From the sequence record MK310183: 64,000 nucleotides of DNA; one strand, 5' to 3'. Position numbers and translations under genes: made by a program. The notes beneath the pieces were generated by a model, which was not told the origin of the DNA, made no database searches, and saw nothing but the letters and a program-made list of their open reading frames with translations. Positions 7,355 through 30,975 of this stretch are shown piece after piece. How positions within the stretch are numbered: position 1 is the stretch's first letter; every line of letters starts with the position of its first letter. The stretch is from Phage NC-B.

Positions 7355-8413
7355 ATGGCAAATCCAACTTTATTTGTATCTTACGACCAGAATGGTAAAA
7401 AACTTTCTTTTGCTAACTGGATTTCTGTCCTGTCTCCGCAAGACACTCCGTTTGTGTCTATGACTGGTAAAGAGTCTATCAATCAGACTATTTTCAGCTG
7501 GCAGACCGATGCTCTGGCGAGCGTAGATGCTAACAACGCCCACGTCGAAGGTTCTCGTGCTGAAGACGGCGAAATGAAACCGACTGTAATCAAGTCCAAC
7601 GTTACCCAAATTCTGCGTAAAGTTGTTCGTGTTTCTGATACTGCTAACACCACCGCTAACTACGGTCGTGGTCGTGAACTTATGTATCAGCTGGAGAAGA
7701 AAGGTAAAGAGATTAAACGTGACCTCGAGAAAATCTTGCTGTCCGGTCAGGCTCGTACCGATATTCTGGCAGACCAGTATCTGACCAACTCTGCAACTGA
7801 TCCTGCTGTTGTAGGTCAGAATGATACCTCAGCTGCTCGTAAGACTGGTGCTTTCCAGTTCCTGTGTGCACACAACGGTGTTGCTGGTGGTGTTGTTAAG
7901 AAAGAAGATGGTCCTGCTGACCCGGATACTGGTGCAGTAACTGTTAAAGTTGCACAGAATGCTTCTAACCCGACTACGAACATCGGTTTTGATGAAGCTG
8001 ATATCTTTGATATGACTCTGCAACTGTATACCGCCGGTTCTGAAGCAGACATCATCATGATTAACCCTGCTCACGCTAGTATCTTTGCTAAGCTTCAGGA
8101 AAACTCTGTTGGTTCTCGTCAGCGTATCTTTGAGAACACCAAACAGTTCATCTATGAAGTTAACAGCATCACTGACCCACTGGGCCAGAGCTATAAAATC
8201 ATCGTTAACCGTTGGATGCCTGCTGATGCAGTTTACTTCTTCCGCAGCTCTGACTGGACTCAGATGGTTCTTCGTGCTCCGAAACGTACTGAACTGGCGA
8301 AAGATGGTTCTTACGAGAAATGGATGATCGAAATGGAAGTTGGTCTGCGTCACCGCAACCCATATGCTTCCGGTGTACTGTTCACTGCTGCGGGAAAGGT
8401 GGAAGCGGCGTAA
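7355..8413 (+). CDS. major capsid protein (short form)
   Basis: 352 aa ORF after scaffold, strong AGGAG SD, stop TAA 8411-8413. Confidence 0.85.
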   Translation: MANPTLFVSYDQNGKKLSFANWISVLSPQDTPFVSMTGKESINQTIFSWQTDALASVDANNAHVEGSRAEDGEMKPTVIKSNVTQILRKVVRVSDTANTTANYGRGRELMYQLEKKGKEIKRDLEKILLSGQARTDILADQYLTNSATDPAVVGQNDTSAARKTGAFQFLCAHNGVAGGVVKKEDGPADPDTGAVTVKVAQNASNPTTNIGFDEADIFDMTLQLYTAGSEADIIMINPAHASIFAKLQENSVGSRQRIFENTKQFIYEVNSITDPLGQSYKIIVNRWMPADAVYFFRSSDWTQMVLRAPKRTELAKDGSYEKWMIEMEVGLRHRNPYASGVLFTAAGKVEAA

Positions 8414-9192
8414 CAGTAGATTCCGTAACTGTTAGTCCTTCGTCGGTTGCAAGCCTTCCGACGGGGGCTACTCAGCAGTTTACAGCTACAGCAGAAATGA
8501 GCGACGGCTCCACAAGCACAACCGGATTTAATTGGTCCGTTGAGGGCGGTGGGGCTGTTTCTGTTTCTGGGCTATATACTGCACCGAGTACGTCGCAAGA
8601 AACCCCAGCAACTATTACGGCTATTAAAGGTGGTAAGTCAGGTACTGCTACAGTTCTATCTGTTTTTGAACCTGCTACTATTGAAGCCAAAGCTAACATC
8701 TCGGGTAAAGTAGGTGGAAGCACCACAGCTTTTACTACAATGTTTACAGCAACTAACTCTTCAGCAGAAGATTATTCTTTTGTTGTATCTCCGACGTCAG
8801 CAGGAACCGTTAGTGCCGCAGGAGTTTTAACTTTAAGTAATGATGCAACTGGCACAGTTACTGTTAAAGCAACTCATAAAACTCAGTCAGGTGTTGAAGC
8901 TACTATAACCTTTACAGGTGTTGTTGCTAAAGCAGCTATTACTGGAAAAACCGTCACTGGTAAGGTTGGTGGTGATACTATTACGTTTGCTGAGTTATTT
9001 ACAGCAACTAACTCTTCAGCAGAAGATTACAACTTCGTATCAAGTCCTCCTGAAATGACTTCATCTATCGATGAGAGCACTGGTCTTGTTACCTTGGCTG
9101 CTGGCGCTACAGGTGATATCACAATTACTGCTACTCACAAAACACAAACGTCTGTGACAGCAACTGCTACGATTACGGTGGTATCAGAGTAA
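7355..9192 (+). CDS. major capsid protein long form (capsid fused to three Ig-like Big_2-type domains via -1 frameshift at 8392-8398)
   Basis: -1 frame ORF 8320..9192 has no independent SD; contains tandem repeats ...FTATNSSAEDY...TVKATHKTQ... Confidence 0.55.
8392..8398 (+). other. -1 programmed ribosomal frameshift slippery heptamer G_GGA_AAG
   Basis: X_XXY_YYZ heptamer 5 codons before the capsid stop; the -1 frame is open from here to 9192 and encodes Ig-like domains. Confidence 0.6.
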
Positions 9193-20895: not shown

Positions 20896-21927
20896 ATGGC
20901 TTATGGAATATGGTGTCAACCTGTAGGACCGGGACCAGCTTCCCCGGCTCCTCTCTTTATTGATAGCGGAAGTACTTTTCCTCAAATAAAAAATTCAATA
21001 AGTGGGAGTTTTAACTTTAATGGGGCTGGAAGGTCTTTTCCTATTAGCGGGTGGGATGGGAGTGGTCAGATAGTGATTGTACCAACAGGCTCTCTTTGTT
21101 GGCAATGGGAGGTTCCTCCTAACTTAATTCCTGATGTATATTGTGTCAACAATATTTATGTAGAGAATAACACATCGTTCAGGGTTACATTAAATCAAAA
21201 TCCGGGAAGCAACCCTTTGTTTGACTGTGGTTTCAATGTATATCAAATCTACCCAAGAGCTGATAGGAACTATGGAATAACCTTCTCTAATACAGCTGAT
21301 TATTTCTCTATCTCAGATGCTGGGATTGTGGGTCAATGCATCTGGGCTTGGCAAGGAACTATAAACAACGCTCTACAGATACCTGATATTGGTGGTTTCT
21401 ATATGCCTAATGCTGTAGTTTTTGCTAACTGGTCTGATGGTGGTGTTGGTTTATCTTATACATCAGGAGATAGGGTGATTCGAGTTTATCAAAACAGGTC
21501 TTATAACAATGGCAACACTAATGAAGGTGGTTCTGTGTTTGCTAGGGTTGCTGTATTTTGTAATGGTGCTGGGGTTCCTGAACACAACGGCGGTTTAAAT
21601 ATATATTCTCCCGGAACTACTCAGTGCGTATTCTCTACTTATAGGTCTCCTTTTACAGTAGACACTTTCGTAGGCTCAGCAGGTGGAAATACTGGCTTAG
21701 CTTATCCTATGATTCCTCTGTCTTCTGGAGTTGGAGCTATCAGAGGAAGTGGGAGTGGTTGGTATTATCAACAAATGCGTTCTCATACCATGTCAGGGTC
21801 TTCAATAGGAACTGGATATGGTAGATATATGTTCCAATGGTCTAACAGTTATGACTTAGGTTCTAATGCTGCTGTTAATATCTCCATCCCTGTAATCAAC
21901 GCTGCTAAGATTTTTGCAGGTTTATGA
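20896..21927 (+). CDS. virion protein (hypothetical)
   Basis: 343 aa, Gly/Asn/Ser-rich, in structural operon. Confidence 0.45.
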   Translation: MAYGIWCQPVGPGPASPAPLFIDSGSTFPQIKNSISGSFNFNGAGRSFPISGWDGSGQIVIVPTGSLCWQWEVPPNLIPDVYCVNNIYVENNTSFRVTLNQNPGSNPLFDCGFNVYQIYPRADRNYGITFSNTADYFSISDAGIVGQCIWAWQGTINNALQIPDIGGFYMPNAVVFANWSDGGVGLSYTSGDRVIRVYQNRSYNNGNTNEGGSVFARVAVFCNGAGVPEHNGGLNIYSPGTTQCVFSTYRSPFTVDTFVGSAGGNTGLAYPMIPLSSGVGAIRGSGSGWYYQQMRSHTMSGSSIGTGYGRYMFQWSNSYDLGSNAAVNISIPVINAAKIFAGL

Positions 21928-21939
21928 TAAGGAGTTTTT

Positions 21940-22737
21940 ATGACAAAAATAATGGGAGTGTCAGAGCTTGACCCTTTGGTCCAACAAGCTTCTAAGAAAT
22001 ATGGCATTCCTGCTGCTCTTATACATGCAGTGATTCAGAGAGAGTCTAATGGAAGACCTTCTGTTGAATCTGGTACAGGACCAGTAGGTTTAATGCAAAT
22101 CAGTAAGGGGTTGGCTAAAGATTATGGATATAAACTTGAAGATAGGTTAGACCCTGCAAAGAATATTGACATGGGTGCTAGATATTTAAGAGATAACCTG
22201 AAAGCTTTTGATGGTGATGTGAGGAAGGCTTTGGTGGGGTATTCAGAAGGAACTGGTGGTGCTAAGCAAATGTTTGCTGGTAAGAGAGGGTTTACACCTC
22301 AAGCTTTAGATTCAATGAATAATAAGCTGTTCCTACCATTCTTTGATAAGAATACAGCAGCGGCACAAGTGGCTAATCCTGTAGGTGCTTTGAAAGCAGT
22401 TCAGCCTGTGGACCAGTTTGATTCTAATACACTGACTAGAGAAGGTGCTGCAAACGCTCCTACTCAAGCAGAGATAGCTGCAAGCAAGGCTGGAGCTTTA
22501 GGTGGTCGTCCTGTAGAGTTTTACTCTGATGAACAATCTACTGGGGAAAATCAAAAACCTCAACAGAACTTTGGAAATGCTGTATTGGCAGCTGCTTCTA
22601 TGCTTGCAGGAAAACAGCCTAACTCTCAAACCGTACAGAGAGCACATGCCCCTACTCAAGCAGGTTCTCGATACAGTCCACAAACACAAGCCGTGCTGAG
22701 ACGTTTGTCTAGCATAGGTACTGATATTTACAGATAA
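21940..22737 (+). CDS. virion-associated lytic transglycosylase (SLT domain) protein
   Basis: SLT signature AVIQRESNGRP...GPVGLMQI with catalytic Glu. Confidence 0.8.
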   Translation: MTKIMGVSELDPLVQQASKKYGIPAALIHAVIQRESNGRPSVESGTGPVGLMQISKGLAKDYGYKLEDRLDPAKNIDMGARYLRDNLKAFDGDVRKALVGYSEGTGGAKQMFAGKRGFTPQALDSMNNKLFLPFFDKNTAAAQVANPVGALKAVQPVDQFDSNTLTREGAANAPTQAEIAASKAGALGGRPVEFYSDEQSTGENQKPQQNFGNAVLAAASMLAGKQPNSQTVQRAHAPTQAGSRYSPQTQAVLRRLSSIGTDIYR

Positions 22738-22746
22738 GGAGGACGT

Positions 22747-23799
22747 ATGTCTCTTTTCGGTTCTGCTCCTAAATCTAAGACTACGGTAGCTCCGTCTTCT
22801 CAGGTTGATGCTCTTCTGAAACAGATTGTAGCAAATGCTCAGGCTATGAATCAAAACGATCAAGGTTTTATTGGTCGTAACGTAGCGGGTTTTAATGAAA
22901 ACCAAACAGCAGCTCTTTCTAATTTAGCAAATTCTAACACACTCAACCAACTCAGTCAGATGTACACCCCTAGAACTCAACAAGGGTTGGACCAGATGAA
23001 TGAGTTGGCTCAGAAATATCAAAACCTAGTTAATAAAGGTGGTATCACTGCTCAGGATGTTAATAATTTTAGCTCTGGATTGAATAGCTCTGCTTTAGCT
23101 AAGTCTACAGGTAAAGCTGCTGCTAATGTATCTCTTGGTAATGGTTCTGATTCAGGTTCTCTTAGACGTGCTGCTGCTCAAGGTGCTGCTCTCTCTTCAG
23201 CGAATACAAACCTTTCTCGTTCTATTCAAGGTAAAAACATGGGTGTTAGCAATCTTATGAATAACAACTCCTATCAGCAAGGTTTGCTCAATGCTCAATC
23301 GGGTCTAGCAAATCAGAATCTGAATCTAGGAGCTGCTGGGGTACAAGCTGGTCAACAGGCAATACAGAATCAGCTCACTGCTGGGAATCTTCAACAACAG
23401 CAAGATCAACTCCAAGCTAACAACAATTGGGAGAATGCTATTGGCAATCAGCAGTATGGTTGGAATCGGCTTAACAACCAGCTTAATGTATTAAACTCAG
23501 TAAGCCCAATGGCTGGGTACACCATTACTAACAAAGGTGCTGCCCCTAATGTTTCACAACAAATCCTTGGTGCTGGGGTTACTGGTCTTGGTATTGCTGG
23601 ACGTCTAGGTGCTTTTACCCCTAATCAGCAAACTACTAATGCTTGGAACTCATACAATGCTTCTGGAGGTCAAGCTGGGATGGCTGGTCCTATGATTGGT
23701 GGCTCAAACCTGTCTCAACAGAATGGTCAGAGCAACTGGTTATCTACCGCAGGAAGTAATATCTTAGGTGGTGTTCTAGGAGCCTTTGGAGCAAATTAA
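22747..23799 (+). CDS. Gln/Asn/Gly-rich internal virion protein (paralog A)
   Basis: starts MSLFGSAPKSKTT; low-complexity Q/N/S/G; paralogous to next gene. Confidence 0.55.
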   Translation: MSLFGSAPKSKTTVAPSSQVDALLKQIVANAQAMNQNDQGFIGRNVAGFNENQTAALSNLANSNTLNQLSQMYTPRTQQGLDQMNELAQKYQNLVNKGGITAQDVNNFSSGLNSSALAKSTGKAAANVSLGNGSDSGSLRRAAAQGAALSSANTNLSRSIQGKNMGVSNLMNNNSYQQGLLNAQSGLANQNLNLGAAGVQAGQQAIQNQLTAGNLQQQQDQLQANNNWENAIGNQQYGWNRLNNQLNVLNSVSPMAGYTITNKGAAPNVSQQILGAGVTGLGIAGRLGAFTPNQQTTNAWNSYNASGGQAGMAGPMIGGSNLSQQNGQSNWLSTAGSNILGGVLGAFGAN

Positions 23800-23808
23800 G
23801 GAGGAGCT

Positions 23809-24777
23809 ATGGCTTTATTTGGTGGTGGGAGTAGCAAGACTACTTCTAAAATGACAAGACCTGACTACATTCAATCCTATATTGACCAGTTGGTCAATCA
23901 GGTTAATAACACTAGTTCAGGTGATTATGTGTATCGAGAAAATGTTGGACTTAATCAAAACCAACAAGAAGCTCTGAACAATCTATCACAATCTGGTGCA
24001 TTAGGTGCACTTTCTTCTCAATACATGGATGCTGCTCAATCTGGCTTAGGTTATCTAGATAACGCATACTCTGGATATAACAACCTATCTAACTCTGGTC
24101 AAATCACTGGGGAACAGATTGGTGCTCTTGCAGGCCAGCTCTATGACGATGAGGCTGTGCAAGCAGCTATTGCAGCGAATAATGAACAAACCCAACAGAG
24201 TTTGGCTAGGAATGCACTTCCTCAAATCTCTCAGCAGTTTGCTGGTCAGCAAGGTTCTGGTGCACGTATGGCTAAATCTTTTGCTCAAGGTGATGCTCTG
24301 AACCAGATGCAGAACACAGCAACCAATATTACTAATAGTGCTTATGACTCCGCTCTAACTCAAGCACAGAACATTCTTTCTGGTAATAGACAAACACAAG
24401 CATCTGCTTTGGGTGGTTTATCTAACATTGGCTCCAATCTTGCTAATCTAGGAAACCAAGCTGGTCAGTTATCACAACAGCAAATGATGAATCAGTGGAA
24501 TGCAGGACTGCAACAGCAGCAACAACAGCAGTCTGATTTGAACAATGCTTATGAGAATGCTCAGAATGCCGCTAATTGGGGTTGGCAGGATATTAACAAT
24601 CAACTAGGTGCTGCCGGGGTTCTTAATGGAGCTTTAGGGACAACCACAACTACTAAAACATCTGGTGGTAGTGGAGGCTTCCTAGGTGGTGCTGCTAGCG
24701 GTGCTGCTGCTGGCTCAGCTTTTGGCCCTTGGGGTGCTTTAGCTGGCGGTGTTATCGGTGGCTTAGCTAGCTCTTAA
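23809..24777 (+). CDS. Gln/Asn/Gly-rich internal virion protein (paralog B)
   Basis: starts MALFGGGSSKTTS; poly-Q stretch; Gly-rich C-terminus. Confidence 0.55.
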   Translation: MALFGGGSSKTTSKMTRPDYIQSYIDQLVNQVNNTSSGDYVYRENVGLNQNQQEALNNLSQSGALGALSSQYMDAAQSGLGYLDNAYSGYNNLSNSGQITGEQIGALAGQLYDDEAVQAAIAANNEQTQQSLARNALPQISQQFAGQQGSGARMAKSFAQGDALNQMQNTATNITNSAYDSALTQAQNILSGNRQTQASALGGLSNIGSNLANLGNQAGQLSQQQMMNQWNAGLQQQQQQQSDLNNAYENAQNAANWGWQDINNQLGAAGVLNGALGTTTTTKTSGGSGGFLGGAASGAAAGSAFGPWGALAGGVIGGLASS

Positions 24778-24791
24778 TTAGGAGAATAATT

Positions 24792-26459
24792 ATGCAACAA
24801 ACTTCTTATGCGTATCTTCGCAGTCAAGACCCAAGAAATCAGATTTATGGTGTTAAACAAGGGGCCGCTTCGGCCTCTCCATACATGGCAAGACCTGCTT
24901 ACCCAGCTGCTGATGTTTCAATGTATAGTCAGAGACCTCCTGCCTCTCCTGTAGGTTTATCCTCTCTTGTTGCTACTGCTCAAGAAGACCAAGAAGCTAT
25001 GTTAAATCCGGGATTTAGGCAGCGCCTTATGGAAGCAGAGAATCAAGGGACTCCTACAAGCCTTCAGGGTATTGATATTGGCGAACCAGCTCCTGCTATG
25101 AATAACCCAGATCTATCCTCTGATGAGGGTCTACAAGCTGCTGGGTTGATGCCTAGTGACCCACTTCCTGTTACTCCTCCTCGTAAACCTCTGGAAGAAA
25201 CAGATAAAGAGTTCTCTCCAGTTCAGGTGGAACAGGCTCAGAATGTTATTAACACTTTAGCTAATAGTAATCCAGCTCCTGAAGGTATGGCTGGTGCAAC
25301 TCGTGCTAAAGACCAAGAACGTATTAATAATGATATTATGGAAGTAGCTAAAGCTAAAGATCCAGCGCAAGCTTGGAATGAGCTTCAGAAGCAACCGTTC
25401 TACCAGAAGTCTAGTTTCTATACTGGCTTAATGGGTGTTGGTCTTTCTATCATGTCAGGTAAATCTCCTATTGAAGCTTTCCAGATTGGTTCTGGCTTAG
25501 CTGCTCAGGATGAAACTAAACAACAACTAGAAGCCAATCGCGATGCTCTGTTAGAACAAGGCTACTCTCAAGATTCAGTTGCTGCTGCAATTGCTTCGGG
25601 AGATCCTTCTCTTCTCAAGATGCGTCAGATGAGTCCTCAGGAGAAAATGGCTCTTGCTGCTCAGGATGAAGAACGTGCTAATCGTGAGTGGGATAGACGT
25701 CAACAGATTCAGGATCAATCAGTTCGTGAACGTGCTGCTGAGACTCGTCGTGCTGCTGAAGAACGTGCTGATGCACAATTTGCTAAACAGAAAGAGCTTA
25801 TTGAATATCGTGATAAGGTTAAAGCAGACCGCGCTGAACAAGCTGCTCAGAGCTTCAACTTCAGTACGAAAGAGCTTCGTAACGTTCAGAATACTGCTGA
25901 AGGTTCTGTTGCTAAGCAGTGGGCAGAAAAAGCTGCTCTGTTTAAACAGTCTCATAAGGACTTGGATTTGGCAGATCAGGCTATTAAAGATAAAGACTAC
26001 CAATCCGCTCGTACCGCTTACATGCAGGCTATTATGAACTCCGCAAGGGCAGAAATTGGTGCTAACCGTTCTCTCCAAGCTGATGACTTGGCCCACTTTG
26101 CAGAAGACCCATCAATCTTTGTTAAGGTTGGTAACACTTGGTCCCTTAAAGCAGGCTATCGTCCTTCTGATGCTGCTCTGTCATACGCTCGTAAGCAGGC
26201 AACTGTTGGTGCTTCTTCGGCTGACAAAGGTGTTCTGGAGTCTAAGAAATCAACTATTGATGCTTATGTGGGTTCTGGCATGAATAAGAAACGTGCAACA
26301 GCTTTGGTTAACCGTGGTATACCTTCTGGCGGTTTCTATGACCCATACAAGACTTTTGATGCAGAAGCTGAAGAATCTGTTGGTGGAGATGCAACCAATC
26401 CTCGCTTAACAGGTGCTCTTTCTTCTTCAGCGGCAGATACGAGTTGGATGTTCCAGTAA
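24792..26459 (+). CDS. internal virion protein (putative)
   Basis: 555 aa in structural operon, charged helical central region. Confidence 0.5.
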   Translation: MQQTSYAYLRSQDPRNQIYGVKQGAASASPYMARPAYPAADVSMYSQRPPASPVGLSSLVATAQEDQEAMLNPGFRQRLMEAENQGTPTSLQGIDIGEPAPAMNNPDLSSDEGLQAAGLMPSDPLPVTPPRKPLEETDKEFSPVQVEQAQNVINTLANSNPAPEGMAGATRAKDQERINNDIMEVAKAKDPAQAWNELQKQPFYQKSSFYTGLMGVGLSIMSGKSPIEAFQIGSGLAAQDETKQQLEANRDALLEQGYSQDSVAAAIASGDPSLLKMRQMSPQEKMALAAQDEERANREWDRRQQIQDQSVRERAAETRRAAEERADAQFAKQKELIEYRDKVKADRAEQAAQSFNFSTKELRNVQNTAEGSVAKQWAEKAALFKQSHKDLDLADQAIKDKDYQSARTAYMQAIMNSARAEIGANRSLQADDLAHFAEDPSIFVKVGNTWSLKAGYRPSDAALSYARKQATVGASSADKGVLESKKSTIDAYVGSGMNKKRATALVNRGIPSGGFYDPYKTFDAEAEESVGGDATNPRLTGALSSSAADTSWMFQ

Positions 26460-26529: not shown

Positions 26530-29500
26530 ATGGCTAATTTAAAATCGTGGGAAGAAGCTTCCAAAGCTCCTGCGTATCTGAACGCCTCTCCAGAGCAACA
26601 GGCTCAAATGAGAGAACAATACAAGGCAGCAGGGGGCACTATTCCTGAGACTCAACCACAAGAGCAACCACAACAAGAAGAACGAGGTGCTATTGGGGAG
26701 TTTGCTCAAGGTGTGTCTAACGCTCTTCAATCAGGTGGTGCTAACATTGCAGCTAGTGCTGCTAAAGGTTTAGGTGGGCTGGTAGAGATTGGTGAAAACT
26801 TAACTGGTTCAGAAACAAGCTATGGTAAGCGCATTCAAGAGAACTCTAAGCAATTGCTGGAAGAACGCTTATCCAAGATAGAAGACGGTTTTGGTAAAAC
26901 AGCTGGTCAGTATGCTGGTGTTGCTGCTGATATTGGTTTGACAGTTGCAAACCCTGCTGTTGCTGCTGCTGTTATCGCAGCTCGTGAAACAGGTCGTGCT
27001 TATGCTGATCAAACTCCTAAAGAAGATGAAGATAAGTCAGTCTTAGATGCTGCTCTTGTTGGTGGTGCTAACTACGCTGCTCAGAAGATACTTCCGGGCA
27101 TGACTGGTACAGCTTCTACTACTCTTGGTCGTGTAGGACAAAGCGTAGCCTCTAACGCAGTTGCTGGTGCTAAGGGTGGTGCTATTGTTGGTGCTGCTGA
27201 AGCTCAGAACAAATATGGGGATGACACTACTCTAGCTAACGTATTAGAAGGGGCTATTGAAGAGGGTGCACTCGGTGCTGCTTATGGTGGGGCGATTGGT
27301 GGGGTTCATGGGTTAATAAGCCGTCCTAGCCCTCAAGTGTTTGATCGTACTCCTGAGCATGTTAAGACTGACATTGCTGCTGAAGATGAGGCTATTCGTA
27401 AAGCTGCTAACGCTGATGAACTTCGTGAAGCCTATGCTAAAGCTGAGAACGCTAATGCTGCCTCTGCTTTAAACCTTCTGGATGAAAATGGTTTCCGAAT
27501 CACAGATGCAGTTGCTATGGACTCTCCTGCTGTTCAGCGTATTTTAAATACAGACCAAAGCCGCGCTGAGAAGGCTGCTACGGTTCAGAAAGATAGCTCT
27601 AATGTTCCCGGTCTTAATCCTCTCGCTTCTCCTAAGAAGACTCAAGGTAAAGCTTTTGCTGACAATGAGTACAACCAGAAACAAGCTGTGGCAATGAAAG
27701 ATGCAATGGCTGACTACACTAAAGATAACACCAAAGCCCTTACTGATGTTCTAGACAATCTAGACCGAGAGTTAGTAGCTCTGAGAGCAAGTGGTGATTT
27801 TACTGGTAGTACTATTGACATTAAAAACCGTACTCAAGCTGATCGTGATTTTATTGATGCTTATAAAACTTTCTACAGCGAAGCTAATCGTTTCAAAGCT
27901 CGTGATGGTGAAGATCTAAACAACTTCATTGATAAAGCTACTCAGTTGCAGAAGCTATCTGAGAATGTTTCTCCAGAGATGAAGAAGGCCATTGGTGGAT
28001 TAAAGAAACTGAAAGGTATGCCTGAAGGTTTTAACCCTATTCAAGATGCTTTCACTCTGAATAATACAGCTAAGTTCATGAGTAACCAAGACCGTGGTTG
28101 GACCTCTCTGACTGATGATGGTTTTCGTGAAGCTCCGGCTCCTGTGCTAGTTAAGAACCCTCTCGGTGCAGCCAAGTATGTGCTTAATCGCTTTACTTCT
28201 GACCGTGCTCGTGCTCAACGTGAGAAGCAACAGTCAGCTAATAGTGAAGCTATCCGCTCTTTGGCTAGGGCTGATTTAGAAGTACAACGAGCTAGGACTC
28301 AGGCTGAAGAAGCAAGAGCAAAAATGGAAGAAGAACCAACCACAGAAGACATCAAATTCCGTACTCAAAATGATGCACCTTCCGAACCGGTTCGTGAGGA
28401 GCCTTCTGCTACTACTGTGACGGAAGAAATTCCTTCCTCTCCAGCTCCAACTGAAACACCTCTTACTGCGAGGGATTTAGTTGCTCAAAGACGTGCTATC
28501 CAACAAGCAGAGCTTAGACGTCAAGAAGCTGAAGCTGCTCAGGCTCAAGAAAGTGCTACACCAGAACCTGAACCACAGCAAGAAGCTCTTACAGCTAGAG
28601 AATTAGTAGCTCAGCGTAGGGCTGTAGCAGAGGCTAAGAAACGTCAAGAGGCAGAGGAAGCAGAACGTGCTAAAGAAGCTCCTGAGGAAGCCGTAGAAGA
28701 GCCTAAAGAGAAACCTGAGCCATTACCTGCTCGTGCTCCTAAAGCTCCTGAGAAGGCTCCTGAGCCTGTTAAACCGTCCCTTGGTGTAGAACGTCTAGCT
28801 TCTATGTCAACTGCTGCTCGTCAAGCAACAAAAGACCGTGCTGATCGATTTGCTCGTTCTTTGTATTCGGCTGCTGCTAAAGCTAAAGCCACTGCGGAAA
28901 ACTTCCTTTCTTACAAGGGAGATCCTAAAGAGCTTATGCGTCGTATCCGTCAGGAAGACCAAGCAAACAACACACAGCGTCATGAAGAGATGGCTAGAAA
29001 CCAACTAGCTTCCCAGCAAGGCATTGCTTCTGCTAAATCTCAACATGTTCGTGCTTCTTTTGCTGATTGGGTGAAAGAACGTGGGTTGCCTTCTGATATT
29101 GCTACTAAGGCTTTACGGGCTGAAGAGAAAGGTTTAGGTGGGAACGTCACAAGTCTAGATTCACTGAAGCGAAGAGCTGAGCGTTTATATCAGAAACAAA
29201 GAGATGATGAGTTTGACCGTCTCTATCGAGAGGCTCTGGAAGAGAATAAAGCTTTTGATAAGAGAGATGCTCCTAAACTGGTAGACCAGAAGAAAGAGCT
29301 TCAGGATGAAATTGGTGCGTTGCTTGATGCTGAACCGTTACGTCCTGCTCAGAAAGATGCTATGCGTAGGATTATGGAAGACTTCGTGGAGAGTAAGTTT
29401 AAATCTTCAGAGAAAGCTGGAAGGGTTGAGGCTTTGGAAGTTGGTCAGATGAAGGATGTGTGGGATGGGTTTATTAATACCTATAACCGAGAAGTTAACA

Positions 29501-30975
29501 TGTTCAACAAGGCTAACAAGAATTCTCAATACGAAGCAGCAGCTAAACACTTGCAAGCACGTCAAGAACGTCTTGAGACGCTCCGTAACAGAGCTAAGGC
29601 TCGCAGTGATGCTAAGGCAGCCATGGAGGCTGAGAAGCAGTCCTTGGAGGCTATAGCGGCTCAGAAATCAGAGATAGAGAAGATGTTCAAAGAATTGCCT
29701 GAAAGTGTCAGAGAGGCTCAGGAAGGGCGTACTTTGAAACAGCTTGCTGCTCACCATGATAAGAACTCTCCAGTACCACCAGAGCGTTTCCGTAGTATCA
29801 TTGAACGTATTCACAACGCTGAGAGTGATTACCTCGATCGAAAACGCCGTTTGACCGAAGCAGAGGAAGATGCTCGTGAAGCTAAGTGGAATAGGATGTA
29901 TGAACAGGCTGAGGAAATGAACCGTAAGTTTGATATCGATGCTAGAGTGAAGAGAGATAAAGCTCTAAAGGAAGCTCAAGAACGAGAGAATGACTTAATG
30001 GCAGTTCAACGTCAGCGTGATGACATTCATAAGCGTTTAGTCAATACTCTGGAAGAGAAGGGAGTTTCTAGGGAAGATGCTGAAGCGTATGCTGGGTCTT
30101 ACATGGATAATCGGTATGCTTTGTTAGAGAAACCAATGACTCCAGTGGAACATCAGAATGCTCGTGCTCGTATCGAATCTGACGTAGAGAAGTTTGTTAA
30201 GAAATACGAAACAGCTACTCCAATCGAAAGAGAGATTGCTAAGGCAACTGGTGATGCAGATGGGAAGGCTTCTGATCTGGATGCAGAAACAGCAAAAGCT
30301 ATTGAAGATGCTCGTAAAGTGGATTCTGACTTTAAGAAACTTTTAGATGAAGAGAAGGAAATGGAGAAGATTCGTTCGGCTCTACCTGAAGATGAAAGAT
30401 CTCAGGCGAACTCTGATATTCTGGAAAGTATCAAGAAACAGGAAGATGATTTTGCTAGCAAAGCAGAGAAAGCTTTTATTGAAGGGAAGGACTTGCAGGA
30501 GTTAGCGAGTGTTGCAGAAGTTCTAGATAGGGTTCATGGTGCAGACAAGGCTGGTAACAACCGTCGATTTGTACGTGCTCTACAGACTGCTGCCGAGAAC
30601 AAGAAACGTTATGGGGATAATCCAGTGGCTTGGTTTAGTGCTGATGATTATTCTGCTATTGCGAAACTTGGTGCTGCTTCGGCAGGTGGTAACAAATCTC
30701 GAGCACTTGAGAAGATCTTTGGTTCTACAGCAGAACAAGCTAAAGGGAAACTTTTAGGGCGGGATGATGTAGCTAAGATTAGGCGTGTGATTGAAGCGAA
30801 TCCTAATGTTAAGATTCCTTCTTACAAGACAACTACTAGACAAGAGTACATGCAGTTCTTGGAGAAGTATAATGACGAGGGAGAGTTGAAAGTCAAACGT
30901 GGTTCTCTGTCTGACAAGTTGGAGAGAGGTAAGCGTCAAGCCAAACTCCGTGTTAGAGTTCGAGCTAAGGAGTAA
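26530..30975 (+). CDS. large internal virion/ejection protein (1481 aa)
   Basis: A/E/K-rich coiled-coil protein, last gene of structural arm; no polymerase motifs. Confidence 0.5.
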   Translation: MANLKSWEEASKAPAYLNASPEQQAQMREQYKAAGGTIPETQPQEQPQQEERGAIGEFAQGVSNALQSGGANIAASAAKGLGGLVEIGENLTGSETSYGKRIQENSKQLLEERLSKIEDGFGKTAGQYAGVAADIGLTVANPAVAAAVIAARETGRAYADQTPKEDEDKSVLDAALVGGANYAAQKILPGMTGTASTTLGRVGQSVASNAVAGAKGGAIVGAAEAQNKYGDDTTLANVLEGAIEEGALGAAYGGAIGGVHGLISRPSPQVFDRTPEHVKTDIAAEDEAIRKAANADELREAYAKAENANAASALNLLDENGFRITDAVAMDSPAVQRILNTDQSRAEKAATVQKDSSNVPGLNPLASPKKTQGKAFADNEYNQKQAVAMKDAMADYTKDNTKALTDVLDNLDRELVALRASGDFTGSTIDIKNRTQADRDFIDAYKTFYSEANRFKARDGEDLNNFIDKATQLQKLSENVSPEMKKAIGGLKKLKGMPEGFNPIQDAFTLNNTAKFMSNQDRGWTSLTDDGFREAPAPVLVKNPLGAAKYVLNRFTSDRARAQREKQQSANSEAIRSLARADLEVQRARTQAEEARAKMEEEPTTEDIKFRTQNDAPSEPVREEPSATTVTEEIPSSPAPTETPLTARDLVAQRRAIQQAELRRQEAEAAQAQESATPEPEPQQEALTARELVAQRRAVAEAKKRQEAEEAERAKEAPEEAVEEPKEKPEPLPARAPKAPEKAPEPVKPSLGVERLASMSTAARQATKDRADRFARSLYSAAAKAKATAENFLSYKGDPKELMRRIRQEDQANNTQRHEEMARNQLASQQGIASAKSQHVRASFADWVKERGLPSDIATKALRAEEKGLGGNVTSLDSLKRRAERLYQKQRDDEFDRLYREALEENKAFDKRDAPKLVDQKKELQDEIGALLDAEPLRPAQKDAMRRIMEDFVESKFKSSEKAGRVEALEVGQMKDVWDGFINTYNREVNMFNKANKNSQYEAAAKHLQARQERLETLRNRAKARSDAKAAMEAEKQSLEAIAAQKSEIEKMFKELPESVREAQEGRTLKQLAAHHDKNSPVPPERFRSIIERIHNAESDYLDRKRRLTEAEEDAREAKWNRMYEQAEEMNRKFDIDARVKRDKALKEAQERENDLMAVQRQRDDIHKRLVNTLEEKGVSREDAEAYAGSYMDNRYALLEKPMTPVEHQNARARIESDVEKFVKKYETATPIEREIAKATGDADGKASDLDAETAKAIEDARKVDSDFKKLLDEEKEMEKIRSALPEDERSQANSDILESIKKQEDDFASKAEKAFIEGKDLQELASVAEVLDRVHGADKAGNNRRFVRALQTAAENKKRYGDNPVAWFSADDYSAIAKLGAASAGGNKSRALEKIFGSTAEQAKGKLLGRDDVAKIRRVIEANPNVKIPSYKTTTRQEYMQFLEKYNDEGELKVKRGSLSDKLERGKRQAKLRVRVRAKE

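Follow-up and report, generated by a model that had tools for sequence, protein, structure and literature searches.

Results and discussion

The DNA analysed here (the window) is a 64,000-nucleotide stretch from Phage NC-B (sequence record MK310183), a phiEco32/SU10-like podophage of the Gordonclarkvirinae that infects E. coli. The window is 97% identical in nucleotide sequence to SU7/Bas87, and by protein the window phage is closer to SU7/4E8 (>99% protein identity) than to SU10. Two adjacent genes, referred to here as A and B, lie between a gene for a lytic transglycosylase (SLT) and the genes for a mid-sized protein, C, and a giant one, D (Table 1). An initial annotation, made from the DNA letters without database searches, had delimited both open reading frames exactly, had described their products fairly as roughly 330 aa long, and had correctly placed them right after a lytic transglycosylase, as the upstream product matches Pfam SLT (E 1.5e-24) and phrog_12507 transglycosylase (E 4e-156) and is syntenic with SU10_020. 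A Shine-Dalgarno sequence, AAGGAGGA, stands 3 nt upstream of the ATG of A and again of B. The gene order short fibre, nozzle, needle, gp19, SLT, A, B, C, D is common to the window, SU10, and phiEco32; its part from the needle gene to the 555-aa and 1481-aa genes is also the order in Bas87 and in a distant E. coli contig.

Table 1. Genes and features of the ejection-protein cassette, in window coordinates.
Feature	Position	Strand	Basis or counterpart
SLT lytic transglycosylase, first gene in the cassette	21940..22737	+	ortholog of SU10 gp20
Shine-Dalgarno AAGGAGGA of gene A, overlaps SLT stop codon	22736..22743	+	read from sequence
Gene A, 350 aa, ejection protein	22747..23799	+	ortholog of SU10 gp21 / phiEco32 gp23
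A aa 1-16, conserved N-terminal motif MSLFGSAPKSKTTVAP	22747..22794	+	M1, F4, V14, P16 invariant (alignment A1)
A aa 18-255, body predicted as helical (137-255 a long helix)	22798..23511	+	AF2, mean pLDDT 56.8, blocks here 50-79
A aa 272-291, Gly/Ala-rich hydrophobic segment QILGAGVTGLGIAGRLGAFT	23560..23619	+	top hydropathy of A (KD19 1.29 at 273)
A aa 330-350, second hydrophobic tail, of small residues NWLSTAGSNILGGVLGAFGAN	23734..23796	+	small-xxx-small repeats
Shine-Dalgarno AAGGAGGA of gene B, overlaps A stop codon	23798..23805	+	read from sequence
Gene B, 322 aa, ejection protein	23809..24777	+	ortholog of SU10 gp22 / phiEco32 gp24 ('DNA injection protein')
B aa 19-272, body predicted as helical, with the Q7 run (nt 24511-24531)	23863..24624	+	AF2 at low confidence (pLDDT 41.7 on average)
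B aa 285-322, conserved glycine-zipper-like C-terminus SGGSGGFLGGAASGAAAGSAFGPWGALAGGVIGGLASS	24661..24774	+	continuous small-xxx-small register
Gene C, 555 aa, next ejection protein	24792..26459	+	phrog_12130; SU10_023 syntenic; ortholog of SU10 gp23
Gene D, 1481 aa, giant ejection protein	26530..30975	+	phrog_14629; SU10_024 syntenic; ortholog of SU10 gp24

Paralogy and composition

That A and B are paralogs, as had been proposed, is borne out far above any effect of composition. BLASTP with composition adjustment aligns 270 aa of the two with 30% identity and an E value of 1e-13, and a profile-profile comparison with hhalign joins them over 280 columns (probability 99.9%, E 2.8e-32). Their Smith-Waterman score of 292 falls to 96 +/- 12 when B is shuffled (z 15.8) and to 116 +/- 15 when it is shuffled in 20-aa blocks (z 12.1). 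The common N-terminus described in the annotation is likewise real (MSLFGSAPKSKTTV versus MALFGGGSSKTTSK; family consensus MGLFGG...TT...P), and the N-terminal motif of A recurs not only in B but also in distant relatives.

The compositional bias for which the pair had been singled out is genuine as well, with Q, N, S, and G together making up 49% of A and 48% of B, compared with 23.4% +/- 4.7% in 38 other long open reading frames of the window; K, R, D, and E account for 7-8% in A and B, and Cys is absent. The annotation had called this composition unusual for structural proteins; it is no peculiarity of this phage but a trait of the whole family, with 39-49% Q/N/S/G in distant members. The 'poly-Q runs' exist, but the phrase overstates them, as there is one Q7 (B, aa 235-241) and one Q4 (A, aa 216-219). 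Repetition at the DNA level is limited to a 21-nt stretch, GCAACAACA repeated 2.3 times, at 24510-24530.

To call the proteins 'low-complexity' and 'flexible' is misleading, since their positions are conserved, dN/dS is about 0.1, and most of their length is predicted, with low confidence, to be helical. Specifically, dN/dS is 0.115 for A and 0.098 for B, indicating purifying selection on both copies, 27-29 columns are invariant in alignments spanning to about 40% identity, and AF2 predicts helices, at low confidence, for about 75-80% of residues. A place for A and B among Q/N-rich disordered 'prion-like' gel-forming proteins was considered and does not agree with this conservation, the low dN/dS, the predicted helices, and the lack of DNA-level repeats other than the short one just given.

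Predicted architecture

The best-conserved stretch of A covers aa about 200-290, and in its hydrophobic segment G275, G277, G282, G285, and G288 vary little or not at all; the second tail of A is kept among close A-family members only. In the B family the C-terminal glycine-zipper-like segment is the best-conserved part. The similarity to Pfam glycine-zipper families is one of resemblance only, at scores below the curated gathering thresholds: the B C-terminus scores 14.9 bits against Glycine zipper 2TM (PF05433; cut-off 24.2, E 0.026), and the relative P0107 scores 24.7 bits against Gly-zipper_YMGG (PF13441; cut-off 28.9, E 1.9e-5). The best 19-residue hydropathy is 1.07-1.29 in A and B and occurs at the C-terminus only; for a transmembrane helix the usual KD19 level is 1.6. 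In the models, the C-terminal tails alone look unstructured or membrane-like.

Fourier analysis of hydrophobicity along the predicted helices gave no heptad peak above the 99th percentile of shuffles, a result that speaks neither for coiled coils nor against them. Searches of solved-structure sequences with A, B, and the family profile returned nothing relevant, and Pfam and NCBIfam assign no family to either protein. A Foldseek search of the PDB with the model of A gave no match below E 0.2, and only generic long-helix proteins, so Foldseek was not used as evidence.

Orthologs in SU10

A is 77.4% identical to SU10 gp21 (SU10_021, both 350 aa) and B is 82.0% identical to SU10 gp22 (SU10_022, both 322 aa), and both pairs are syntenic; nothing of substance differs between the SU10 proteins and those of the window. 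Both also match the 'DNA ejection protein' family phrog_4287, A with E 1.4e-104 (residues 1-350 on profile 1-392) and B with E 4.3e-99 (residues 1-310 on profile 1-321). A study of SU10 virions detected gp21 and gp22 in purified particles by MS, with coverage of 53% and 49% (PMC4281155), which bears out, for the orthologs, the virion location that the annotation had given A and B; absence from virions, which it had named as what would speak against it, had thus already been examined in SU10, and both proteins were found there. Genome-release intermediates of SU10 are without gp20-24 (PMC9509320, with its Supplementary Fig. 4C and Table 1), and the 'ejection conduit' of the annotation agrees with the model published for SU10. 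In the passages of the SU10 literature considered here, gp21 is called hypothetical and neither the paralogy nor the domain features are mentioned.

The A/B family is therefore a known one, with orthologs that are experimentally ejected virion proteins, and the finding is real but ordinary because A and B belong to an already annotated family. With the genes of close relatives annotated 'DNA ejection protein' and the SU10 orthologs ejected, there is little discovery value in the assignment itself. The remaining interest lies in the biology of podophage genome delivery, for which SU10 offers cryo-EM and cryo-ET systems.

The wider family

An exhaustive search at E <= 1e-3 placed 1107 cluster representatives in the family. 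When the family profile was run against viral contigs, only close relatives came up. The tandem pair is kept in L004 and L012-L014; complete E. coli genomes yielded no cassette of the L004 type.

By sequence comparison, the A/B family is a distant homolog of Pa223 gp56, a putative outer-membrane channel. Pa223 gp56 matches phrog_4287 with E 1.5e-10 and, by hhalign, the family profile with E 4.4e-5 (probability 69%), and phmmer ties it to the family members P0168, P0052, and P0141, with E values from 1e-9 to 2e-6 when calculated for 1.8 billion sequences. The relationship must be called distant because a direct hmmsearch of Pa223 gp56 with the A3 profile did not reach E 1e-3. Pa223 gp56 has been detected in virions by MS and modelled with AlphaFold3 as a nonameric channel, its channel role being a prediction from MemBrain and the AlphaFold3 nonamer (bioRxiv 10.1101/2025.06.11.659172).

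The gp56 protein of Pa223 (Bruynoghevirus; PHROG 7477) is 313 aa long, is similarly rich in G, Q, N, S, and A, and resembles A and B at the C-terminus, where W/Y...N..L, a T/S-rich stretch, poly-Gly, and a Gly-zipper are found. Its gene is downstream of the tail-needle gene, with one small open reading frame between them, and upstream of genes of about 500 aa and about 1000 aa. It differs from A and B in being present as a single copy rather than a tandem pair and in having an extra 25-aa N-terminal extension. BLASTP found no detectable similarity between C and Pa223 gp54 or between D and gp53, so the analogy between the two cassettes is one of order and size only.

Comparable arrangements are found more widely. 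In distant relatives, too, the module is followed by a protein of about 450-600 aa and this by one of about 1100-1800 aa, and the gp14-gp15-gp16 order of the three-part ejection cassette mirrors this succession of module, mid-size, and giant protein (PMC8954989). By order and size only, C is in a gp15-like and D in a gp16-like position. A and B share with the T7 gp14 / P22 gp7 class a place as the small first member(s) before a mid-sized and a very large protein, packaging in the head and expulsion at infection (as shown for the SU10 orthologs), and the possession of hydrophobic segments. They differ from that class in length (322-350 aa versus about 180-240 aa, or about 1.6 times the size), in having 1-2 weak Gly-zipper segments rather than 4-5 predicted transmembrane helices, and in being duplicated, and the lytic transglycosylase, which is a separate upstream protein in the window, forms the N-terminus of the giant gp16 in T7. 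Comparison by hhalign with T7 gp14 (probability 0.1%), P22 gp7 (2.5%), and P22 gp20 gave no similarity, with all probabilities at or below 2.5%.

In several relatives (such as P0188, P0192, P0222, and P0047) an N-terminal module of ~300 aa like A and B closes with a T-rich stretch and a Gly-zipper and belongs to a longer protein. Peptidase_S74 follows the module directly, with significant matches, in P0188 and P0192, and an S74 domain is present in 13 of 96 short family members. Module-hydrolase fusions occur too, with Hydrolase_2 in P0188 and SLT in P0222, so that the hydrolase that is a separate gene in the window is a fused domain in some relatives. The contigs carrying these fusions belong to SU10-adaptor-type podophages. 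B stops where S74 starts in the fusion relatives, whereas A continues about 60 aa beyond. A and B themselves carry no hydrolase domain and no S74 domain with its SDxRxK cleavage motif; Pfam gives no S74 match for them even at E <= 10, and an S74 HMM custom-made from sequences of the family gave E values of at least 0.17 on A- and B-family sequences. The tail of A (aa 292-350) was considered as a vestigial S74. A few A-family tails resemble S74 by eye (PVYKYDNQ), but the custom HMM scored A-family sequences no better than those of B, and the idea was rejected as unsupported.

A proposed role in genome ejection

We suggest that A and B, two diverged copies of one ejection module of phiEco32/SU10-like podophages, form, with better than even probability, the membrane-proximal component of the ejection channel. 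As such they would be the counterpart of T7 gp14, P22 gp7, and Pa223 gp56. The orthology to SU10 gp21 and gp22 and the findings on those proteins, the module fusions, the family link to gp56, the cassette order, the Gly-zippers, the dN/dS of about 0.1, and the retention of the tandem pair count for this reading. Against it count the low hydropathy of the hydrophobic segments (KD19 1.1-1.3), the AF2 pLDDT of 57 and 42 with no significant Foldseek match, the sub-threshold glycine zippers, the larger size and lack of sequence similarity relative to T7 gp14 and P22 gp7, the failure to match P22 gp20 or any solved structure, and the dissimilarity of C and D to Pa223 gp54 and gp53. An outer-membrane role in particular would derive from the distant homology to gp56, whose own role is bioinformatically predicted.

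In the proposed sequence of events, A and B would be products of the late structural operon that are packed into the head, and upon release of the tail needle they would exit through the portal-tail channel with the SLT enzyme, C, and D. Their long polar, nearly uncharged helical bodies may then form an oligomeric tube as an extension of the tail nozzle, and the conserved C-terminal glycine-zipper segments would insert in the outer membrane; the assembly would probably contain both A and B. SLT would open the cell wall by cleavage, with C bridging the periplasm and D extending to the inner membrane. That the trimer-dependent, self-cleaving S74 follows the module in many relatives suggests a module that assembles as a trimer or with a copy number divisible by three, an indirect argument, as A and B themselves are without the domain.

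It is conceivable, if on balance doubtful, that SU10 gp21/gp22 and Pa223 gp56 form a superfamily that is a structurally new class of outer-membrane ejectosome component, without sequence relationship to T7 gp14 or P22 gp7 and about twice as large. Its members would ancestrally have been matured by S74, and the SU10 lineage would have lost S74 and duplicated the module, giving an A/B hetero-oligomer that is anchored by its glycine zippers and prolongs the 28-nm nozzle; an ancestral maturation by the trimer-dependent Peptidase_S74 would then imply a build in multiples of three. The gp56 homology, the S74 and hydrolase fusions, and the lineage-specific duplication in any case supply hypotheses on stoichiometry and membrane insertion.

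An alternative is that A and/or B are soluble tube subunits, extending the nozzle or forming part of a periplasmic tunnel without inserting in a membrane, in which case the two copies might form successive segments of a longer conduit. Most of A and B is indeed predicted as long polar helices, their hydrophobic segments are weak, and Foldseek, though without a significant match, ranks long helical bundles and channel shafts of Tc toxins as the nearest structures. We nevertheless consider this unlikely, as the best-conserved part of the family is a C-terminal Gly-zipper of a type typical of membrane-embedded or membrane-associated segments, the slot of a tunnel protein, the gene of about 500 aa after the module, is already filled by C, and the distant homolog Pa223 gp56 is a predicted membrane protein.

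It is less probable still that A and B are mainly internal parts of the head, whether as 'gel-like' filler, DNA spacer, or portal-barrel plug, and are expelled passively. The 'gel-like internal core' offered in the annotation found no supporting evidence, and a mere filler would not be expected to show such strong positional conservation and purifying selection. The module also always lies within the ejection cassette, and in relatives it is fused to peptidoglycan hydrolases, which work outside the capsid. The Q/N/G/S-rich, very low-charge composition and the low AF2 confidence of the C-terminal tails would suit a filler, and absent density would as well, but according to the P22 passages considered here this is usual for P22 ejection proteins too, and those form a conduit.

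That A and B are external trimeric fibres or 'neck appendage'-type proteins is highly improbable: although one GenBank record (H31) names the A ortholog 'neck appendage protein', relatives carry Peptidase_S74, best known from tailspikes and fibres, and P0192 weakly matches tail-fibre PHROGs over the same region, the SU10 tail is made up, in the passages that describe it, of gp11, gp12, gp13, gp16, gp17, and gp18, and gp21/gp22 leave the SU10 particle on genome release with the other core proteins in the portions of PMC9509320 cited above.

Results and discussion

A and B belong to a known family of ejection proteins

At the DNA level this region shares 97% identity with Escherichia phages vB_EcoP_SU7 and Bas87; with other phiEco32/SU10-like phages (Gordonclarkvirinae) the figure is about 75%. 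The gene order of the window is that of SU10 and phiEco32. A is the counterpart of SU10_021 and phi32_23, and B that of SU10_022 and phi32_24, annotated 'putative DNA injection protein'; relative to the SU10 orthologs, A is 77.4% and B 82.0% identical, and the lengths do not differ. Full-length matches to PHROG 4287, 'DNA ejection protein', were obtained for A (E 1.4e-104) and B (E 4.3e-99), and searches of Pfam, NCBIfam and PDB sequences with A and B gave no match.

Locations of A, B, neighbouring genes and relatives that carry the shared ~300-aa ejection-protein module
Feature	Location	Strand	Length	Description
Overlapping ORF pair	7355-8413 and 8320-9192	+		94-nt overlap; major-capsid position
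DUF6453 protein	20896-21927	+	343 aa	PHROG 'membrane protein'; between tail needle and SLT gene
SLT lytic transglycosylase	21940..22737	+	265 aa	Precedes A and B; Pfam SLT domain, E 1.5e-24
A	22747..23799	+	350 aa	ORF in long plus-strand structural operon
B	23809..24777	+	322 aa	ORF in long plus-strand structural operon
D	26530-30975	+	1481 aa	Giant protein of the ejection cassette
P0188	L015 9834-13295			Module + Peptidase_S74
P0222	L017 9001-12930			Module + SLT
P0047	L018 9001-10272			Module + Peptidase_S74
L004 locus	GCA_023211535.1 (E. coli, 389,554-bp contig), 204317-225285			SU10-type capsid, terminase and portal; complete SLT-A-B-498aa-1113aa cassette

Virion proteomics, which the initial annotation had proposed as a check, already places orthologs about 80% identical to A and B in the particle: LC-MS/MS of purified virions detected SU10 gp21 (35.9 kDa) with 53.4% coverage and gp22 (33.3 kDa) with 49.1% coverage (PMC4281155). 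According to a cryo-EM study of SU10, gp20-24 are present in virions and missing from genome-release intermediates, and were therefore named ejection proteins; the virion map, as described there, has no resolved density attributable to them (PMC9509320). In the model proposed in that study they exit once the needle gp18 detaches, gp20 degrades peptidoglycan, and gp21-24 prolong the nozzle into a periplasm-crossing channel (PMC9509320). As the family is known and annotated and its orthologs are experimentally characterised, the novelty of A and B is low. The gene preceding the SLT gene encodes a protein that is 37% Q/N/S/G; its SU10 ortholog, gp19, is absent from the virion proteome list of PMC4281155.

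Paralogy, composition and constraint

The proposed paralogy of A and B holds, and goes beyond what shared composition explains. BLASTP with composition adjustment aligned them at 30% identity over 270 residues (E 1e-13), profiles built from the relatives of each aligned end to end (hhalign probability 99.9%, E 2.8e-32), and their Smith-Waterman score of 292 lay 15.8 SD above that for shuffled B and 12.1 SD above that for B shuffled in 20-residue blocks. The N-termini are similar (A, MSLFGSAPKSKTTV; B, MALFGGGSSKTTSK), and an identical strong Shine-Dalgarno sequence, AAGGAGGA, precedes both start codons, in each case overlapping the upstream gene's stop codon.

Together Q, N, S and G account for 49% of the residues in A and 48% in B; in 38 further long ORFs from the window they reach 23.4 +/- 4.7%. 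In A and B charged residues are scarce, at 7-8%, and cysteine is absent from both. The reported poly-Q runs exist but are modest, a single Q7 in B and a single Q4 in A, and DNA repeats were ruled out as their source at the DNA level. The description of A and B as flexible, low-complexity proteins did not stand: they are biased in composition yet constrained. In alignments whose members are as little as about 40% identical, 27-29 columns are invariant, and comparison with SU10 gives dN/dS of 0.115 (A) and 0.098 (B), comparable to the adjoining SLT gene, although these values are rough because dS is saturated. AF2 monomer models, of low confidence (mean pLDDT 56.8 for A and 41.7 for B), draw some 75-80% of the chains as helical, including one helix spanning A 137-255, and leave the C-terminal 70-100 residues unmodelled. 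No significant heptad periodicity was detected in A or B, and a gel-like core found no support.

Conservation is best at the C-terminus, where a W..N..LN motif is followed by a T-rich stretch and a Gly/Ala/Ser-rich hydrophobic segment. The segment in B (aa 285-322) runs in an uninterrupted small-xxx-small register and weakly resembles Pfam 'Glycine zipper 2TM' (E 0.026, below threshold); one relative matched Gly-zipper_YMGG at E 1.9e-5.

Breadth of the family and fusions of the module

When 1.84 billion cluster representatives were searched exhaustively with a profile, 1107 proteins matched at E <= 1e-3, of which 183 reached E <= 1e-10, and most of the alignments covered the entire module. The tandem pair is lineage-specific: side-by-side copies are seen in the window, in one E. 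coli contig and in three viral contigs of 82-90 kb, and remoter relatives have a single copy. Distant members score higher with the B profile than with the A profile (91 vs 35), and B is therefore probably closer to the ancestral form. The E. coli contig (L004) also carries SU10-type capsid, terminase and portal genes, and may belong to a relative that is temperate, or resident in some other way, within a phage group mostly considered lytic; its type of cassette had no match among complete E. coli genomes. Large contigs of Enterobacter and E. coli likewise encode the B-like proteins P0040 and P0046.

In many relatives, P0114 and others included, the module is directly followed by a Peptidase_S74 intramolecular-chaperone domain that opens with an SDxRxK motif. 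The domain is significant in P0188, P0192 and 13 of 96 short family members, and the motif is found in 20 among the matches listed; neither A nor B was found to contain an S74 domain. Such domains, familiar from endosialidase and tail-fibre chaperones, generally fold and self-cleave only as trimers, a hint that the module may build up in threes and be freed as a ~300-aa polypeptide that would end at the Gly-zipper. B ends exactly at that point. Among the papers searched, none tied S74 to ejection or internal virion proteins.

Cell-wall hydrolases are joined to the module in some long proteins: P0188 has a Hydrolase_2 domain and P0222 an SLT domain. Both are single giant proteins with a long C-terminal region, uniting functions spread in the window over the SLT, A/B and C/D genes (C, of 555 aa, and D follow B in the cassette). 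The P0188 contig has two SU10_adaptor genes, and P0205 (471 aa) carries a Hint/intein-like N-terminal domain (Pfam Hom_end_hint, E 7e-6) ahead of the module.

A putative role in the ejection channel

The family is distantly related to gp56 (313 aa) of phage Pa223, as judged by the matches of gp56 to phrog_4287 (E 1.5e-10), to the family profile (E 4.4e-5) and, with phmmer, to individual members (E 1e-9 to 2e-6, scaled to 1.8 billion sequences). Pa223 gp56 is found in virions, has been proposed as the 'gp14-like' outer-membrane channel of the ejectosome, and was modelled by AlphaFold3 as a nonameric channel (preprint 10.1101/2025.06.11.659172). No similarity was detectable between C and Pa223 gp54 or D and gp53.

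The cassette SLT, A, B, C, D resembles the gp14-gp15-gp16 scheme described for T7-like and P22-like phages (PMC8954989), except that the lytic enzyme is here a separate protein. Position, the Gly-zipper and the relationship to gp56 together make a membrane-proximal channel component the likeliest reading of A and B, which probably act jointly, with C and D as the presumptive tunnel and inner-membrane parts. Against membership in the gp14/gp7 family, A and B show no sequence similarity to it, are larger, and have weak hydrophobic segments; that they are instead soluble tube-building subunits seems unlikely beside the Gly-zipper and the gp56 relationship. A mainly intracapsid role is improbable as well. 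A role as external fibre proteins is contradicted by the SU10 data and hardly credible.

The core of the initial annotation, paralogous virion proteins engaged in ejection, is upheld, the paralogy here and the rest through SU10: release of such virion proteins on ejection is established in the SU10 orthologs only, and the other mechanistic steps are inferred. Useful leads for structural work on this ejectosome come from the fusions to S74 and hydrolase domains and from the Pa223 gp56 link.

D is extremely Ala/Glu/Lys/Arg-rich (33% charged), with an internal repeat at about aa 645-700 (LTARDLVAQRRAIQQAE... and LTARELVAQRRAVAEAK...). The overlapping ORFs at the major-capsid position correspond to the SU10 gp9/gp10 pair, for which a longer capsid form arising by ribosomal slippage is described in PMC4281155.
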